NCBI GenBank assembly: GCA_044350705.1
Contig: JBILHA010000001.1
Coordinates: forward strand, 49,809-113,808
DNA: 64,000 bases
DNA from: Candidatus Kapaibacterium sp.
Lineage (GTDB): Bacteria; Patescibacteriota; Patescibacteriia; UBA9934
Direction of reading: 5' to 3'
Shown: piece by piece, positions 3,101 through 40,959 of the stretch
Layout: each line of letters begins with the position of its first letter
How positions within the stretch are numbered: position 1 is the stretch's first letter
The notes under the pieces: generated by a model
Database searches by the model: none
What the model saw: the letters and a program-made list of their open reading frames with translations, nothing else
Told to the model about the DNA's origin: nothing
Position numbers and translations under genes: made by a program

Positions 3101-4000
3101 TTATTTTCCTTTTTTTATTTTTGCTACAAAGAACCCCTCACTCTCAGCGGTTGGCAGAATGATGGTCCCGAATTTGGTAGGACGGATGGGGGAGACGGGG
3201 AGCGTCATGGGTTCTATGTGCATGGAAGGGTGCTCATCGATAAACCATTTCATTTGCTCCTCGTTTTCTTCAGGGGCGAGGGTGCAGGTTGAATAGACGA
3301 GTGTGCCGCCAGGTTTGAGCATGCGAAAGGCGCTTCGCAGGAGGCGGCGTTGGAGTTTGGCATGTTCGGTGATGTTTTTTTGCGACCAGAACGTAAATGA
3401 GCGCGGATCGCTTAAATCAATGCGTCCTTCTGCGGTGCAGGGGACATCGGCGAGAATGGCATCAAACGTTTCGGGGTATTCGTGATGTAGGGTAGTGCTG
3501 TCGACATTTTTTGCTTGAGCATTCACTCCCTGGATAGTGATCGTGTTTTGCAGCTTTTGGAAGCGGACGGAATTATCCTCGCAGGCGATGAGGGTTCCTC
3601 TATTTTCCATGAGAGCGGCAAGTTCTGAGGTTTTACTTCCTGGGGCGGCGCAAATATCGGCGACGATTTGTCCGGGCAAAGGGGCAAGAATTAAGGGGGG
3701 AATCATGGAGGCGATTCCTTGAAGATAGACGTGACCAGCTTTGGTGAGATGATGATCGAGCAATTGCTCATCAGTTCGGTTTTTTATGCGAAGTGCATGG
3801 GGTACGTTTTTGATGCGTTCAAAGGCGATTCCTTCTTCGCGATAGACATCCATGACTGCATGGTCAGTTGTTTTGAGGGTATTGATTCGAAGAGTCGGAA
3901 ATGGCTTCGTACTAAAAGCTCGTAGCATGGTGGCTACGGTTTGAGGGCCGAATTGTTTCGTAAGGCGTTCCAGGAGGGGTTGGGGAAGCGTGCGAGCCAT
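3101..4000 (-). CDS. RNA m5C methyltransferase, NOL1/NOP2/Sun (RsmB/RsmF) family, no NusB-like N-domain
   Basis: DICAAPGSKT SAM motif, DAILADVPCTAEG, TLVYSTCT catalytic Cys motifs. Start taken at internal Met (MARTLPQ) because the upstream extension overlaps the next gene. Confidence 0.8.
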   Translation of the reverse strand: MARTLPQPLLERLTKQFGPQTVATMLRAFSTKPFPTLRINTLKTTDHAVMDVYREEGIAFERIKNVPHALRIKNRTDEQLLDHHLTKAGHVYLQGIASMIPPLILAPLPGQIVADICAAPGSKTSELAALMENRGTLIACEDNSVRFQKLQNTITIQGVNAQAKNVDSTTLHHEYPETFDAILADVPCTAEGRIDLSDPRSFTFWSQKNITEHAKLQRRLLRSAFRMLKPGGTLVYSTCTLAPEENEEQMKWFIDEHPSMHIEPMTLPVSPIRPTKFGTIILPTAESEGFFVAKIKKGK

Positions 4001-9840: not shown

Positions 9841-10308
9841 ATGGCGGATATTCAACGTACTTTGGTTCTTGTAAAGCCAGATGCAGTACAGCGTGAGCTT
9901 GTTGGGGAAATTGTAGGTCGCTTTGAGCGCAAAGGTTTGAAGATGGTGGGCATGAAGCTTACGCATCTTGATGCCGCAACGCTTGAAGAGCATTACGGAC
10001 ATTTGAAGGAGAAGCCTTTCTTTCCTTCTCTCGTGCAGTTCATGATGCAAACTCCTGTTGTTGCAATGGTGCTTGAAGGACTCGATGTTATTGAAGCGGT
10101 TCGCAAAGTTGTTGGTGCGACAAATCCTCGCGTTGCAGATGCAGGAACGATTCGCGCGGATCTTTCCATGAACGTTCCTTCGAACATTATTCACGCATCT
10201 GATTCTCCTGAAGCGGCTGAAGTTGAAGTGAAGCGTTTCTTCAAGTCAGAAGAGCTCTTCTCTTACGAGAAACTTACGGATCGTTTCCACTTTGGAGAGG
10301 GCGTTTAA
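9841..10308 (+). CDS. ndk: nucleoside diphosphate kinase
   Basis: RTLVLVKPDAV ... NIIHASDS catalytic His region. Start taken at MADIQRT. Confidence 0.9.
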   Translation: MADIQRTLVLVKPDAVQRELVGEIVGRFERKGLKMVGMKLTHLDAATLEEHYGHLKEKPFFPSLVQFMMQTPVVAMVLEGLDVIEAVRKVVGATNPRVADAGTIRADLSMNVPSNIIHASDSPEAAEVEVKRFFKSEELFSYEKLTDRFHFGEGV

Positions 10309-10327
10309 GGTTTTCTGTGGAAAACTC

Positions 10328-10355
10328 TTGCCATGTGAAAAAAATGTGGTAGAGT
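10328..10355 (+). promoter_or_regulatory. sigma70-like promoter (TTGCCA-N16-TGgTAGAGT extended -10)
   Basis: Hexamers read directly. Lies just downstream of ndk in a convergent intergenic region. Confidence 0.4.
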
Positions 10356-10439
10356 AAATATATCAGTATGCAATTTGGCATGTATAAGTCATTCGCAGTC
10401 ACATTTACCTCACGCATTTGTGTGGTACTTTGTGATGTT

Positions 10440-10535
10440 CGGGTGGCTTTGCAGCATGCATAGCATTTTCTTGAAAGAGAATTTGTTACAACAGGTTGAA
10501 AAAAGCCACCCGGAGCAATTCGGGTGGCTTTTCTT
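10440..10535 (+). promoter_or_regulatory. candidate attenuator: antiterminator segment (cgggtggcttt) duplicating the 3' half of the downstream terminator aaaaagccacccg-gagcaatt-cgggtggctttt
   Basis: The exact 11-nt copy of the terminator 3' arm 60 nt upstream can pair with the terminator 5' arm. The hairpin plus T-run is bidirectional. Confidence 0.4.
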
Positions 10536-10977
10536 GTGTGGTCTTGTGCGGTGAGGTTCGTGAGACTCTCATGAATCTTCCGCGCAAGGGCACTCGATGT
10601 ACCTGCGCAACCTGCCATCAACCTTGAGACGAGAGGGATCCCTCCATGAGCACTCGTTCCTCCGATGACACGACCGTCACCTCCTTCGTTCCCGCGACTG
10701 TTCCTGTTGCGACCGCCTCCTCGACGTTCATGTCTCCGCGCAACGAGCGCCTTCCGGGTGACCGCACCCAGGCGCATCCGGTGACGCCGGATATCGATCA
10801 GATGGCGATGGCCAATCGTCAGATGGCGATGGTCGATCGTCTCCGGTTCTTCTGTGGTGTCGGCTGAGGTGTTCGGGGTGGGGCTTCTCAGAAAACAAGT
10901 GAGAGGCCGTTCAGGTCTCTCGTGCCAAGTGACTCTGTCGCCCTTCCCCCTTCGTGAGCCCTTGTGCTCGCTCACGT

Positions 10978-11026
10978 CCCCGCCACCTCGAGGCCTTGCC
11001 GCTTCGGTGGCGGGTCTTCATTTTTA
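10978..11026 (+). terminator. GC-rich hairpin + T-run (plus-strand intrinsic terminator), overlapping the stop of the convergent minus-strand gene
   Basis: ccccgccacc ... ggtggcggg followed by tcttcattttta. Confidence 0.55.
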
Positions 11027-11860
11027 TGCGGATTTGAATGTACCTGTTGTCATCCTTCGATCTTTTGCTTTTCTCTTGAGGAGCTTGGTGACAATGAACC
11101 GTTCTGCCGAAGTTGCGTCGCGGGTTTTGAGAAAATGTACGAGTGCAGCGCCAAGTTCATTTTGGAATTCCTGGTTCTGTTCGGGGAAAAGCATCACCAT
11201 ACGCTCTGCGATGCGACGAGTGAGGAATTCGTCTTGAGGAGAGAGTTTTTCCGTGAGGTTCATGAGCATACGTTGCGCATGACGTTCTACGTTTTCTTCG
11301 ATCTTTGCAATGTTGCCGTACTGACGGTGTAGCTCTTCTCCGGTAAGTACAGGAATGCCTTCTATGCTTTTTTGAGATGTCCACGCTGTATCAGGGACGA
11401 TTTCGGTATCTGCCATGAGTTCGAAAGGAACCTCGTCATTTCCTATATGGAGACTTCCCTGGAGGATGAGCGCGCGTTGACCCACGCGTTTTGGCTCGCC
11501 AAAGGTGATATGTGCAGGGTTTACTTCTTGGAAATAGCGGAGAATTTTTTTGAGGTCATCATGCTTTTTTAGAGCAATATCAATGTCGTCGGGAATTTTA
11601 GGTAGAGGCTCGTGACGTTCGGTAGCATGGAGCGCGAGTGCCGTACTCCCGATTATTTTATAAGGAATCTGGAGTTCGCGTAAGAGAAGATCGATCATCC
11701 GCAATCCTTTTTCTAATGCGAGAAGCTTTTCATGATCTTTGTCCCGTATAAGTTCTTCCGTCGTTTCTTCAAGGGGAAATTCTTTATGATCATCACGATC
11801 ATGCGCATGTTCCCCTGGACGACGTTTCATTTCCGGCATGCTTCCTCGTAGTTCAGGCAT
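11024..11860 (-). CDS. putative nucleotidyltransferase (Pol-beta superfamily fold, KNTase/Lnu-like NT domain + helical domain)
   Basis: IIGSTALALH ... DDIDIAL matches the hG[GS]...DhDh minimal nucleotidyltransferase signature. Acidic N-terminus. No partner gene. Confidence 0.45.
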   Translation of the reverse strand: MPELRGSMPEMKRRPGEHAHDRDDHKEFPLEETTEELIRDKDHEKLLALEKGLRMIDLLLRELQIPYKIIGSTALALHATERHEPLPKIPDDIDIALKKHDDLKKILRYFQEVNPAHITFGEPKRVGQRALILQGSLHIGNDEVPFELMADTEIVPDTAWTSQKSIEGIPVLTGEELHRQYGNIAKIEENVERHAQRMLMNLTEKLSPQDEFLTRRIAERMVMLFPEQNQEFQNELGAALVHFLKTRDATSAERFIVTKLLKRKAKDRRMTTGTFKSA

Positions 11861-13204
11861 ATGTTCAAGAAAGAAAAAATATCTGTTAGTATTCTAGCAA
11901 AGAATATGCCATCTACACTTCGTATTACGGGCGGAAAAGCACTTTCAGGAGAGATTACGGTTGCAGGTGCAAAAAATGCTGCATCAAAAATGATTATTGC
12001 GACTCTTCTTACTCCTCATGAGGTAACCCTCACGAATGTTCCTTTGCAACAAGAGACGGATATTGCTTGCGAATTGGTAAAGACCTTAGGCGGAGCCATT
12101 TCTCTTGAAGATCATACCCTTCGTCTTTGTGTGGAAGAGATTGCTTCTACCTCTGCGATGCAGCTATCAAGAAAAAATCGTTTGGCTATTTTAGCGCTCG
12201 CTCCACTTCTTCACCGAAAAGGCGAAGCTTTTGTCCCTACATTAGGGGGGGACAAGATTGGTCCTCGTCCTGTGAATTTTCATTTAGATGCTTTAGAGAA
12301 AATGGGGGCAAAGATTGAGGCGGATGCTGATGGCTATCGCGCAACCGCACCTGGAGGACTTAAGGGGACGGTTATTGAACTCCCGTATCCTTCTGTGGGA
12401 GCGACGGAGACGGTGCTTTTTGCGGGGGTTCTTGCAAAAGGTCGCACTGTTCTTCGGAATGCTGCTATTGAGCCTGAGATCGTAGACCTCATCATGATGC
12501 TTCAAAAAATGGGAGCTATTATTGAGCTCCGTGCTGGACGCGAGATCATGATTATTGGCGTTAAGGAACTTCATGGTTGCGTGCACCGTGTATTGCCTGA
12601 TCGGCTTGAGGTTGCTTCTTTTGCGGCGCTTGCTTTAGGAACGAGGGGGGATATTTTTGTGCGCGGTGCGAAGCATCGCGATATGATCACTTTTTTAAAT
12701 GCGGTGCGTCAGTTGGGGGGAGAATATGAGGTTACGGGAGAGGGCATTCGTTTTATAGGCCGATCTTCCTATCGCGGCATGCAGGTAGAAACCGATACTG
12801 CTCCTGGATTTTCCACGGATTGGCAGCAGCCGTTTTGTGTTTTGCTTACTCAAGCAGAAGGAACTTCGGTTATGCATGAAACGGTGTATGAGGAGCGTTT
12901 TGGTTATACCGATGTTTTAAAGAAAATGGGTGCAGATATTACGCTTTTTGAAAATTGTTTAGGTGAGATCAGATGTCGTTTTCGAGATCATAACTATAAA
13001 CATGCGGCGATTATCAAAGGGCCAACGCCTCTTCATGCGACCGATATGGCTGTTCCTGATATTCGAGCTGGACTTGCATATGTTCTTGCGGCACTCATTG
13101 CTGAAGGAACTTCTACCTTAACGGGCGTGGAACATTTAGAGCGCGGATATGAAGATCTTTATGGGAAGCTTCGCAGTATTGGTGCGCAGATAGAGGTAAG
13201 CTAA
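11861..13204 (+). CDS. murA: UDP-N-acetylglucosamine 1-carboxyvinyltransferase
   Basis: LRITGGKALSGEITVAGAKNAASK and typical MurA length. Alternative start at 11906 (MPSTLRITGG). Confidence 0.9.
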   Translation: MFKKEKISVSILAKNMPSTLRITGGKALSGEITVAGAKNAASKMIIATLLTPHEVTLTNVPLQQETDIACELVKTLGGAISLEDHTLRLCVEEIASTSAMQLSRKNRLAILALAPLLHRKGEAFVPTLGGDKIGPRPVNFHLDALEKMGAKIEADADGYRATAPGGLKGTVIELPYPSVGATETVLFAGVLAKGRTVLRNAAIEPEIVDLIMMLQKMGAIIELRAGREIMIIGVKELHGCVHRVLPDRLEVASFAALALGTRGDIFVRGAKHRDMITFLNAVRQLGGEYEVTGEGIRFIGRSSYRGMQVETDTAPGFSTDWQQPFCVLLTQAEGTSVMHETVYEERFGYTDVLKKMGADITLFENCLGEIRCRFRDHNYKHAAIIKGPTPLHATDMAVPDIRAGLAYVLAALIAEGTSTLTGVEHLERGYEDLYGKLRSIGAQIEVS

Positions 13205-27144: not shown

Positions 27145-27501
27145 ATGACGAAGAAAGAAATTCAAGCAAAGCGCGCTCGTTCAGAGCGTCGCGCAGCTCG
27201 TGTCCGCGCAGTTATTCGCGGCACTGCAGAACGCCCACGTTTGTCGGTGTTCCGTTCTCAAAAACATATTTCCGCCCAGGTTATTGATGACGTTGCAGGT
27301 CGCACCTTGGTTTCTGCACAGGATCTTAAACTTGAGAAGCTTTCTCCTTTGGAGCGCGCTCAGCAAGTGGGAAAGCTTGTTGCAGAGAGTGCAAAGAAAG
27401 CAGGCATTACGACGGTCGTTTTCGATCGTGGAGCATACTTGTTCCATGGTCGTGTAAAGGCGCTCGCAGAGGCTGCTCGTGAGGCTGGTCTTCAATTCTA
27501 A
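27145..27501 (+). CDS. rplR: 50S ribosomal protein L18
   Basis: Typical L18. Confidence 0.9.
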
Positions 27502-27505
27502 TCCT

Positions 27506-28126
27506 ATGGCAGAACAAGAAAACATTCAGAATGCAGCTCCTGCAACGCAGGCTGCAGCTCCTCAAGCTGGTGGTTTCCAGCGAGGTAACGATCGCCGTGG
27601 TGGTCGTGGACAGGGTGGGCAACGTGGCGGTGGTCGTGGAGACCGTCGTGGCGGCCGTTCTCAGGAGCGTGACCCTCGTGAATTTGAACAGAAGACGCTT
27701 GAGCTTTCTCGCGTTACCCGTGTGACCAAGGGTGGTAAGCGCATGCGCTTCCGCGCGACGGTTGTTGTGGGTGACAAGAAGGGTCGTGTAGGCTTCGGAG
27801 TGGCAAAGGGCGCTGACGTGGCTATGGCGCTTGATAAAGCGTCACGTCAAGCAAAGAAGCGCTTAGTGCAGGTTCCTTTGCATAAGGGAACAATTCCTCA
27901 CGAGGTTGCTGCTAAGTTTGGTGCTGCAATGGTGATCATTAAGCCAGCTCCACAAGGTACTGGACTTAAGAGCGGTGGTCCTGCACGTATCGTGCTTGAA
28001 CTTGCCGGAGTACCGAATGCGGTTTCCAAGATTCTTGGTGGTAAGAATAAGATTAACAACGTAAAAGCTGCATTTGCTGCGCTGAAAATGTTGCGCAAAG
28101 AGAAGGCTTCTACGCCTTCCGCATAA
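27506..28126 (+). CDS. rpsE: 30S ribosomal protein S5 with RGG-rich N-terminal extension
   Basis: S5 core (RVTKGGKRMRFRA ...) preceded by GGFQRGNDRRGGRGQGGQRGGGRGDRRGG. Confidence 0.9.
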   Translation: MAEQENIQNAAPATQAAAPQAGGFQRGNDRRGGRGQGGQRGGGRGDRRGGRSQERDPREFEQKTLELSRVTRVTKGGKRMRFRATVVVGDKKGRVGFGVAKGADVAMALDKASRQAKKRLVQVPLHKGTIPHEVAAKFGAAMVIIKPAPQGTGLKSGGPARIVLELAGVPNAVSKILGGKNKINNVKAAFAALKMLRKEKASTPSA

Positions 28127-40629: not shown

Positions 40630-40706
40630 CGCAGGGTGGAGCAACCAGGCAGCTCGCCGGGCTCATAACCCGGAGGTTACAGGTTCAAATCCTGTCCCTG
40701 CAACCA
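40630..40706 (+). tRNA. tRNA-fMet (initiator, anticodon CAU)
   Basis: C1xA72 mismatch. Three consecutive G-C pairs closing the anticodon stem (GGG/CCC). T-loop GGTTCAAATCC. CCA encoded. Confidence 0.9.
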
Positions 40707-40740
40707 CAAAAACCTCTCATTTGTTGAGAGGTTTTTGTTA
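40707..40740 (+). terminator. intrinsic terminator after tRNA-fMet
   Basis: aacctctca-tttgt-tgagaggtt followed by tttt. Confidence 0.65.
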
Positions 40741-40762
40741 TGCATGACGTATTTCGTCTATT

Positions 40763-40791
40763 AAAAAAATCCGAATTTCTTCGGATTTTTT
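40763..40791 (-). terminator. intrinsic terminator after the minus-strand tRNA pair (bidirectional hairpin)
   Basis: A-run, atccgaa-tttct-tcggat, T-run; abuts the tRNA-Met 3' end. Confidence 0.6.
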
Positions 40792-40868
40792 TGGTGGCTG
40801 GGGCCGGGATCGAACCGGCGACCTAAGGCTTATGAGTCCTTCGCTCTAACCAACTGAGCTACCCAGCC
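40792..40868 (-). tRNA. tRNA-Met (anticodon CAU; elongator, or Ile2 if lysidinylated)
   Basis: Cloverleaf GGCTGGG ... CTCATAA ... GGTTCGATCC ... CCCAGCCACCA. Confidence 0.85.
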
Positions 40869-40872
40869 AAAG

Positions 40873-40959
40873 TGGTGCCTTGGGAGGGACTCGAACCCTC
40901 AATCCATTGCTGGAAACGGATTTTGAGTCCGTCGCGTATACCAATTCCGCCACCAAGGC
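40873..40959 (-). tRNA. tRNA-Leu (anticodon CAA)
   Basis: 87 nt with long variable arm. Anticodon loop CTCAAAA. T-loop GGTTCGAGTCC. CCA encoded. Confidence 0.88.

Follow-up and report, generated by a model that had tools for sequence, protein, structure and literature searches.

A candidate transcription attenuator preceding a compositionally unusual orphan small gene downstream of ndk in a narrow clade of Patescibacteria

The DNA analysed here, a 64-kb window of contig JBILHA010000001.1 from the Patescibacteria (candidate phyla radiation, CPR), carries the gene order leuS–comEC–ndk–[region]–278-aa gene (minus strand)–murA–M50 peptidase–rpsL–rpsG–fusA. The bracketed region between ndk and the convergent 278-aa gene holds, at 10328-11025 on the plus strand, the unit described in this study: a promoter-like site, a 31-codon leader open reading frame (ORF) whose RNA has alternative pairings, and a second small ORF (ORF2) set between structured untranslated regions (UTRs). 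The window belongs to a 462-kb JGI metagenome contig, Ga0453917_0000001. The NDK homologues of the window carry the labels Patescibacteria or Uhrbacteria. Related loci (prefix L) were found through the neighbouring genes, the 278-aa protein leading to L005/L006 (89% identical) and L007/L008/L010 (44%), and the NDK homologues to L011, L013-15, L018 and L019-21; a search with the 278-aa protein in genome contigs gave no match. The unit lies downstream of ndk in six related Patescibacteria lineages, with flank identity from 96-98% down to ~77%, and is missing from L016, L017 and L022-26, though NDK there is 82-85% identical. In L011 and L013 it is preceded by ndk and followed by murA, with or without an FMN-reductase gene in between, all on the same strand. 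Common to the six lineages are the promoter, the 31-codon ORF, the 1:2, 2:3 and 3:4 pairings, the 5′-UTR hairpin, a Shine-Dalgarno (SD) sequence with ATG, ORF2, the 3′ hairpins and the terminator. Within the 64-kb window the unit occurs as a single copy; blastn in 'distant' mode against phages and plasmids gave no match to it, and an exact DNA pattern scan for the three-repeat attenuator core found none in genome or viral contigs and only one, already known, contig among metagenome contigs. The unit is restricted to a narrow clade of Patescibacteria. Its leader half comprises the following features.

10328..10355, plus strand: promoter, with -35 TTGCCA at 10328-10333, a 16-nt spacer and an extended -10 TGgTAGAGT (hexamer 10350-10355), from a consensus scan
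10367..10372, plus strand: 5′ half (UAUGCA) of a closing stem, pairing with UGCAUA at 10457-10462, from RNAalifold
10368..10463, plus strand: leader ORF of 31 codons, MQFGMYKSFAVTFTSRICVVLCDVRVALQHA and stop
10386..10395, plus strand: region 1 (AAGTCATTCG), the anti-antiterminator, pairing with region 2
10438..10450, plus strand: region 2 (TTCGGGTGGCTTT), identical to the 3′ arm of the terminator, inside leader codons 24-28
10463..10486, plus strand: small hairpin directly past the leader stop codon, forming the loop of the antiterminator
10501..10535, plus strand: attenuator terminator, with region 3 at 10501-10512, a loop, region 4 at 10521-10532 and the U-tract TTTTCTT at 10529-10535

All features listed in the original prediction, an earlier reading of the same DNA, are present where it had placed them. 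The promoter that it had named (TTGCCA-N16-TGgTAGAGT) is, taken alone, a match at chance level (2 sites vs 1.9 expected in shuffles) but gains from conservation, with a -35 of TTGNNN and a -10 of TA(G/A)AGT kept at the same spacing in six lineages. Promoter geometry predicts a transcription start near 10362. As the -10 is positioned 12-14 nt before the ATG of the leader ORF, that ORF would begin ~5-7 nt past the predicted start, and the mRNA would be almost leaderless. The leader ORF itself, which had escaped the original prediction, retains its ATG, its TAG and exactly 31 codons in six of six lineages despite heavy substitution; in L013 one codon was lost and one gained, so that the length stays 31. 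Conserved residues of the peptide follow the pattern MQ..(M/T)(Y/F)K(S/P)F...(I/L)CV(D/V)L...R(V/M)AL.(H/R)A, and the ratio of nonsynonymous to synonymous substitution (dN/dS) ranges from 0.10 to 0.86, below 1 in all 10 pairs. Inspection of the six peptides by eye disclosed no hydrophobic transmembrane helix of the kind expected for a type I toxin or membrane peptide, with K, R, D, T, S and H scattered along them. The leader (10328-10535) hardly varies between lineages in which the DNA identity of the flanking genes is ~77%, and its 10367-10550 stretch is much better conserved than the neighbouring 278-aa protein (44% identical in L007). At the peptide level, this evidence is suggestive, not conclusive.

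The strong hairpin terminator that had been proposed for 10500-10535 is borne out by 12 perfect pairs, extending to 14, a folding energy of -23.4 kcal/mol and pairing in 98% of cells across 7 sequences; a simple terminator scan missed it because the U-run partly pairs with an upstream A-run. Equally exact is the duplication of its 3′ arm, which reaches 13 nt (TTCGGGTGGCTTT at 10438-10450 and 10519-10531) and is kept in every lineage, with a chance expectation that we estimate at ~0.005 in 851 nt. Through this copy, region 2 can pair with region 3 as an antiterminator enclosing 51 nt, which is 98.7% paired in the 7 sequences, compared with 34-61% when the partner is slid. The 1:2 helix is paired in 92.9% of cells and shows one-sided, pair-keeping changes only (U-G to C-G and U-G to U-A). 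All three helices are thus 93-99% paired across the 7 sequences, with regions 1 and 2 inside the leader ORF, and the terminated state as a whole is paired in 86% of cells versus 39-46% in slid controls. In L013, a G to A change in region 2 is accompanied by C to T in region 3 (G-C to A-U), while region 4 keeps its G, now in a wobble pair. The small hairpin at 10463-10486 is 92% paired and carries an A-U to G-C double change in two lineages. The 6-pair UAUGCA/UGCAUA stem is invariant in the 7 sequences and therefore offers no covariation information; in the RNAalifold consensus, it buries the leader start codon after the whole ORF has been transcribed. Within the leader, conservation and consistency of pairing are both lowest at 10396-10436 (57-67% paired in helices 4 and 5), and L005 has a compensatory pair at 10412/10421 in which both changes are synonymous. 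In L019, an 8-nt insertion (3260-3275, corresponding to window 10534-10535) lengthens the U-rich tail of the attenuator (GGCTTTTCTCTTTTTTGGTGTGG).

The suggestion of a riboswitch or attenuator architecture therefore holds in its second half: the antiterminator is present, and the enclosure of region 1 and the duplicated arm in the 31-codon leader ORF speaks for a ribosome-mediated, trp-type attenuator and not a riboswitch. Folding is consistent with a kinetic order of the switch, as judged from the energies. RNA transcribed up to region 3 folds into the 2:3 form, whose 79-nt piece from region 2 to region 3 reaches -34.1 kcal/mol; at full length, the leader adopts 1:2 plus 3:4 at -70.4 kcal/mol (z = -5.9), and masking of the stretch that a ribosome would cover at codons 8-19 makes 2:3 the best fold before region 4 is present. 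Scans against all of Rfam, one of several checks that the original prediction had called for, were run on the window at gathering score, on the region at E<=10 and on five relatives at E<=0.1. They returned no family, only terminator-driven matches below threshold: the Phe_leader, Thr_leader and Leu_leader models scored 22.0, 16.7 and 13.7 bits against gathering scores of 50-55, and in the Phe_leader alignment it is mainly the terminator hairpin that aligns. The failure of the original prediction to recognise RNase P RNA, tmRNA or signal recognition particle (SRP) RNA was likewise upheld by the Rfam scans of the window and five related loci, which did not match 6S RNA either, with ARAGORN finding no tmRNA. 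Downstream of the attenuator, the second half of the unit and the overlapping antisense frame comprise these features.

10536..10595, plus strand: long 5′-UTR hairpin of ORF2, ~25 pairs, directly after the U-tract, with a conserved base and a variable apex
10600..10608, plus strand: segment A′ (TACCTGCGC), a degenerate copy of the hairpin 5′ arm that can pair with the 3′ arm at 10580-10593
10633..10645, plus strand: Shine-Dalgarno GAGGG (10633-10637) in a small hairpin, GAGGGA/TCCCTC, ending at the ATG
10646..10867, plus strand: ORF2, 73 codons, GC 0.62, rich in S/T/P/A, with GAGGG 8 nt upstream
10687..10698 and 10975-10986, plus strand: probable deletion end-point repeats, CGTTCCCGCGAC being an imperfect direct repeat of CGTCCCCGCCAC, from alignment with L005, L019, L020 and L021
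10798-10818 and 10819-10839, plus strand: in-frame 21-nt tandem duplication, 90% identical, encoding QMAMANR/QMAMVDR
10901..10975, plus strand: 3′-UTR hairpins at 10901-10921 and 10954-10975 (GTGAGC...GCTCAC)
10978..11025, plus strand: unit terminator, CCCCGCCACC...GGTGGCGGG then TCTTCATTTTT, with the hairpin at 10978-11014 and the T-run to 11025
10274..10975, minus strand: antisense ORF of 233 codons, codon-aligned with ORF2 and overlapping the 3′ end of ndk

The long 5′-UTR hairpin starts 1-5 nt past the U-tract in all lineages, as expected of one continuous transcript, and 10 of its 24 RNAalifold pairs keep pairing through changes on both sides. The comparative alignment that had been proposed as a further check thus places the unit in six lineages, with compensatory changes in both the antiterminator and this hairpin. 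An alternative B:A′ hairpin involves segment A′; folded alone, it forms 13 perfect bp in L018 (3311-3344) and 10-11 bp in L019/L005/L010, and it is weaker in the window (8 pairs plus a bulge), L011 and L013. From these predicted folds, the B:A′ pairing may add another structural switch, placed after the attenuator and before the ribosome-binding site of ORF2. In five lineages, a conserved ATG is preceded by a purine-rich SD motif at a distance of 7-9 nt, and the hairpin that sequesters this motif is present only in the window/L005/L010 clade. A consensus scan found no promoter-like site between 10536 and 10646, leaving ORF2 dependent on read-through.

The segment beyond the attenuator had been described as richer in both GC and CG than its flanks. 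For the whole 64-kb window, GC content peaks at 10550-11000, with 0.60-0.63 against a mean of 0.478 (sd 0.036), but CpG enrichment was rejected, with an observed/expected ratio of 1.08 vs 1.12 for the window. The second-highest GC peak (27551-27850) is unrelated and belongs to an RGG-rich, low-complexity N-terminal extension (GGFQRGNDRRGGRGQGGQRGGGRGDRRGGR) of ribosomal protein S5 (27479-28126, plus strand). The 73-aa ORF with its GAGGG is present as described, and the direct repeat noted within it proved to be the in-frame 21-nt tandem duplication; the ORF2 of L013 has an internal repeat of 9 nt, so that both lengths are multiples of three. Across four lineages, ORF2 spans 57-88 codons (73, 57, 88 and 70) and is essentially unalignable, with 21-34% protein identity and only MS(T), SP and an HPV.PD-like patch recurring. 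The four nonetheless share a codon signature. Comparison of codon usage, together with that of GC content the last of the checks proposed for this DNA, showed that A at the third codon position (A3) occurs in 0/73, 3/57, 7/88 and 1/70 codons (P = 6e-7, 3e-3, 1e-2 and 3e-5), against a genome-wide frequency of 0.216; of 14,837 seventy-codon windows in the genes of the 64-kb window, none falls below 0.043. The depletion begins at the ORF2 ATG and ends at the stop codon, and codon position 1 has an ordinary coding composition. Confinement of the A3 depletion to ORF2, the normal first position and the in-frame repeats indicate that ORF2 is read in this frame; it appears, from composition, to be read in triplets and would accordingly be translated. 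These features, with the conserved SD and ATG, favour the option of a regulated small-protein gene that the original prediction had left among several. GC content of ORF2 stays at 0.59-0.66 in the four lineages vs 0.46-0.52 in the flanks, and since the sequences have diverged past alignment, the composition would seem to reflect active maintenance and not the legacy of a foreign donor.

The product of ORF2 is probably a small, disordered protein. Profile searches against Pfam and NCBIfam gave no match, a sequence search of 5.8 billion clusters retrieved only ORF2 itself, and among 1.84 billion representatives it retrieved itself and one 1133-aa tandem-repeat protein, P0125. This candidate homologue (phmmer E = 3.6e-29) was rejected, as its score is the sum of 15 weak repeat matches; P0125 consists of ~60-aa tandem repeats (…SVTSSCPQSWVSHLPGGRCQSHPVVHSLEFLIYQVADVSHIQLST…) and is probably a translated satellite-like repeat. 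On the opposite strand, the 233-aa ORF was likewise rejected as a gene. An ORF2 free of codons ending in A leaves the antisense frame without any codon that begins with T, and hence without a possible stop; the open frame is thus a by-product of A3 loss, and in neither L011 nor L013 does a consistent antisense frame run open through the unit. Public annotations of this frame nevertheless exist as 'hypothetical proteins' of 115, 167 and 175 aa (L001 4629-4976, L009 4084-4587 and L007 1970-2497). Pseudo-ambigrammatic coding sequences, in which extreme third-position codon bias yields a reverse ORF, are described for RNA viruses with GC3 (GC content at third codon positions) of ~98% (PMC13262655). 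ORF2 resembles these in that sense-strand third-position bias gives a codon-aligned, stop-free antisense frame, and differs in that T3 (T at the third position) remains at 0.22-0.40, only A3 is lost, and the gene is a bacterial one of 57-88 codons.

At the 3′ end, a pre-terminator hairpin stands in the same place in four lineages with differing stems (GTGAGC, GGGTGC, ACGCGAG and GCGAGC). The second plus-strand terminator that had been called at this end is present and is kept in all lineages, strains with a short allele included; the convergent 278-aa gene has its stop codon (11024-11026) partly within the T-run. The short allele, found in five different samples (L005, L006 and L019-21) with flanks 96-98% identical, lacks ~300 bp between CGTTCCCGCGAC and CGTCCCCGCCAC, and its ORF2 remnant enters the terminator without a stop codon. 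These repeats probably mark the ends of the deletion, which the alignment suggests arose by recombination between them. As strains without ORF2 exist in nature, the ORF2 protein is dispensable. The locus is mosaic: L019 equals the window across 10367-10533, differs from it at ~20/56 positions in 10311-10366 and differs throughout 10553-10977. The alignments are most simply read as exchange through homologous recombination at the conserved ends. The promoter block itself (10311-10366) occurs as two very different haplotypes, with ~20 differences in 56 nt, among strains whose flanks are 96-98% identical. Both contain a short dyad in the -35/-10 spacer (CCATGTG..TGTGG or CGGT..ACCG), which could be an operator or a recombination footprint.

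We propose that 10328-11025 is a single plus-strand transcription unit in which a ribosome-mediated attenuator, built on a nearly leaderless 31-codon ORF, gates read-through into an orphan small gene with structured UTRs, and we put the probability of this reading at roughly 0.55. Its parts, their conservation, covariation and codon periodicity are seen directly in the sequences. Transcription from a sigma-70-type promoter would give an almost leaderless mRNA whose first 31 codons are the leader ORF, and the leader RNA could then adopt three mutually exclusive pairings: 1:2, 2:3 (antiterminator) and 3:4 (intrinsic terminator). With no ribosome on the leader, the 3:4 terminator would form and transcription would stop at ~10535, as in the trp leader; a ribosome at the leader stop codon would cover region 2, with the same outcome. 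A ribosome slowed at about codons 5-19 would mask region 1 and leave region 2 free, so that the 2:3 antiterminator would form first and polymerase would continue past 10535. The read-through RNA would carry the long 5′-UTR hairpin, the SD and ATG, and ORF2, and would end at the 3′ hairpins and the second terminator. In ORF2, the amino acids would be nearly free to change while the composition is held (GC-rich, without NNA codons).

Several points weigh against this proposal. The transcription start, the translation of both ORFs and the ribosome dependence of the switch are what we infer from the sequence. The antiterminator rests on one compensatory event, with only 6-7 distinct sequences to compare. 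Substitutions in the leader fall 21/22/28 across the three codon positions, a mild third-position skew that is not decisive alone; the middle third of the peptide is variable, and the conserved codons coincide with paired RNA segments. The leader contains no codon run or conserved enrichment (Thr 2-4x and Phe/Tyr 2-3x, scattered) that would point to a sensed signal. The long hairpin and the B:A′ pairing play no part in the model. Finally, short-allele strains keep an intact, still-compensating leader and the 5′-UTR hairpin, which suggests that the leader, as RNA or as peptide, may have a role apart from ORF2.

Retention of the leader and its structure where ORF2 is deleted would be natural if the locus held two independent small genes, with the promoter, the 31-codon ORF and the hairpin forming a gene for a 31-aa protein and/or a ~175-nt small RNA, ORF2 being reached by leaky read-through or from an unrecognised promoter, and the copy of the terminator arm within the leader ORF having no regulatory meaning. 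A strong, invariant terminator, the unusually stable leader fold and a leader peptide with conserved residues and dN/dS below 1 would also suit this arrangement. We consider it unlikely, because the 13-nt repeat persists in every lineage and regions 2 and 3 change together in L013, both hard to explain without a functional 2:3 pairing; nor does it account for the missing promoter ahead of ORF2 or for a 5′-UTR hairpin abutting the U-tract in all lineages. Distinctly less likely is a genuine switch that the ribosome does not drive, with an aptamer (riboswitch), a tRNA (T-box-like) or an RNA-binding protein choosing between terminator and antiterminator and the 31-codon frame being incidental. 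The architecture as such would permit it, codon conservation could stem in part from RNA structure, given that the synonymous changes at 10412/10421 form a compensatory pair, and a second reading frame is also nearly stop-free across the leader stretch. Yet no Rfam riboswitch or T-box model matches the region at E<=10, the would-be aptamer (10396-10436) varies more and pairs less consistently than any other part of the leader, and the ATG, the TAG and the exact count of 31 codons survive in six lineages despite offsetting codon indels.

Two further readings concern the GC-rich segment itself, and a non-coding RNA and foreign DNA had both been raised for this DNA before. That it is a structured non-coding RNA (ncRNA) of a new class, with ORF2 an accident of high GC, we judge very improbable, although its plus strand folds better than shuffles (z = -3.45), its ends carry conserved, covarying structures, ORF2 has no homologue, and a 70-codon open frame at 62% GC would by our estimate arise by chance in ~13% of cases. 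An accidental frame would not be expected to show near-absence of A3 from ATG to stop only, in four unalignable lineages, with a first codon position normal for coding, conserved SD spacing and ATG, and internal repeats in multiples of three. The interior also has neither alignable sequence nor a common fold, so that the idea of an RNA of unrecognised class survives for the conserved, covarying 5′ and 3′ untranslated ends and not for the body of the segment. Harder still to credit is an insert between two terminators, whether decaying DNA of foreign origin (left by a mobile element or a phage) or a cassette for hypermutation such as the variable region of a diversity-generating retroelement (DGR). 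CPR genomes are rich in DGRs. The segment is the GC maximum of the window, alleles are wholly different between strains with 96-98% identical flanks, and hypervariable coding DNA whose adenines fall at the first two codon positions alone, with a GC-rich stretch and a hairpin behind it, resembles DGR template and variable repeats. However, in at least four lineages the segment occupies one and the same position and is bounded by the same conserved ends; its composition persists though the sequence is saturated with change, which points to maintenance rather than decay, and nothing similar was found in phages, plasmids or viral contigs, so that the notion of a decayed foreign segment finds no support. 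A DGR was rejected for the window, as blastn (word size 7) and nhmmer found no second copy or template repeat in its 64 kb, allele differences are not limited to adenines, and the whole of the small ORF2 is affected, not the C-terminus of a lectin-fold protein. Ongoing hypermutation is moreover hard to reconcile with the window allele, which is the same in five independent samples.

The proposed ribosome-mediated attenuator has its closest conceptual relatives in the trpL, pheL, thrL, leuL and hisL attenuators, with which it shares a short leader ORF near the 5′ end, the 1:2/2:3/3:4 pairings with regions 1 and 2 in or next to that ORF, an intrinsic terminator with U-tract, and a stop codon so placed that a terminating ribosome covers region 2. 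It differs from Trp_leader, Phe_leader (RF01859), Thr_leader (RF00506) and Leu_leader (RF00512) in having no sequence or covariance-model similarity to them (best score 22 bits vs a gathering score of 55, mainly on the terminator), no single-amino-acid codon cluster, a nearly leaderless mRNA, and an orphan small ORF downstream in place of a biosynthetic operon. The missing codon run and the conserved peptide motifs would, by analogy, bring it closer to sensory leader peptides. TnaC, SpeFL, ErmCL/ErmBL, SecM and MifM are sensory or arrest peptides with conserved residues and no codon run that control their target through mRNA structure, and the C-terminal R(V/M)AL.(H/R)A before the leader stop is presumably comparable; there is no sequence resemblance, conservation of the leader peptide is inseparable from RNA pairing, and stalling is hypothetical. 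A T-box had also been hinted at, from a GGGTGG; as in T-box leaders (RF00230), the strand with this motif makes up the 5′ side of an antiterminator that competes with a terminator. That hint did not stand: there is no RF00230 match in the region at E<=10 or in five relatives at E<=0.1, neither a specifier loop nor the conserved AGGGUGGNACCGCG box is present and ACCGCG is absent, the antiterminator encloses a long loop instead of being a small bulged helix, and what follows downstream is neither an aminoacyl-tRNA synthetase gene nor an amino-acid gene.

A number of observations concern the neighbouring genes. The convergent 278-aa gene (11024-11860, minus strand) has very few homologues, only two other clusters having turned up. 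In L011 (2049-2858) and L013 (2073-2888), a similar-sized, similarly oriented gene lies upstream of ndk and not downstream of the unit; the counterparts in L011 and L017 (2034-2885) give a weak NTP_transf_2 signal, and that in L013 has no Pfam match. If these candidate homologues are true ones, the gene has moved within the clade. The start of murA is ambiguous, with a longest ORF of 447 aa (from 11861, plus strand) and a 432-aa form in relatives and other gene calls, beginning MPSTLRITGG at 11906. In L013, murA begins ~45 nt past the terminator of the unit and may depend on its read-through. The start of ndk (9760/9841-10308, plus strand) also differs between records, giving 155, 177 or 181-182 aa, and the 155-aa form from 9841 (MADIQRTL) agrees with most homologues. 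At 40630-40959, the window carries three tRNA genes, namely two tRNA-Met (CAT) on opposite strands and a tRNA-Leu (CAA).

Taken as a whole, the unit is, on the proposed reading, a lineage-restricted variant of a known attenuation principle attached to a compositionally odd orphan gene, and lies outside described RNA and protein families. Its regulatory part is well supported by comparison and conceptually familiar, and the composition of ORF2 is the part that could be new. One reading of that composition, which we hold to be improbable, is that selection acts on decoding of the message and not on the protein, with ORF2 kept NNA-free and GC-rich, swapped at its structured ends and switched on through the leader when translation slows. 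In one version of this idea, which involves HigB-type toxins, the ORF2 message could be among the few still translated under toxin stress. Alternatively, there may be true selection for an ambigrammatic, stop-free antisense frame, and dependence on particular tRNAs may be a further reason for the lack of NNA codons.

Regulatory RNA in the CPR appears little described. The organisms are uncultivated, standard family libraries are silent on this region, and a full-text literature search found no report of a leader-peptide attenuator in Patescibacteria and nothing relevant on CPR attenuators. The public antisense 'hypothetical proteins' of 115-175 aa at this locus are artefacts, and the two alignments obtained here (A1 and A2) could seed new RNA families. 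Comparative data alone expose what is probably a complete, trp-like attenuator coupled to the ribosome, which suggests that transcription-translation coupling is used for regulation in reduced genomes. Should the A3 constraint reflect decoding or nuclease resistance, selection would be constraining a bacterial gene in a new way.

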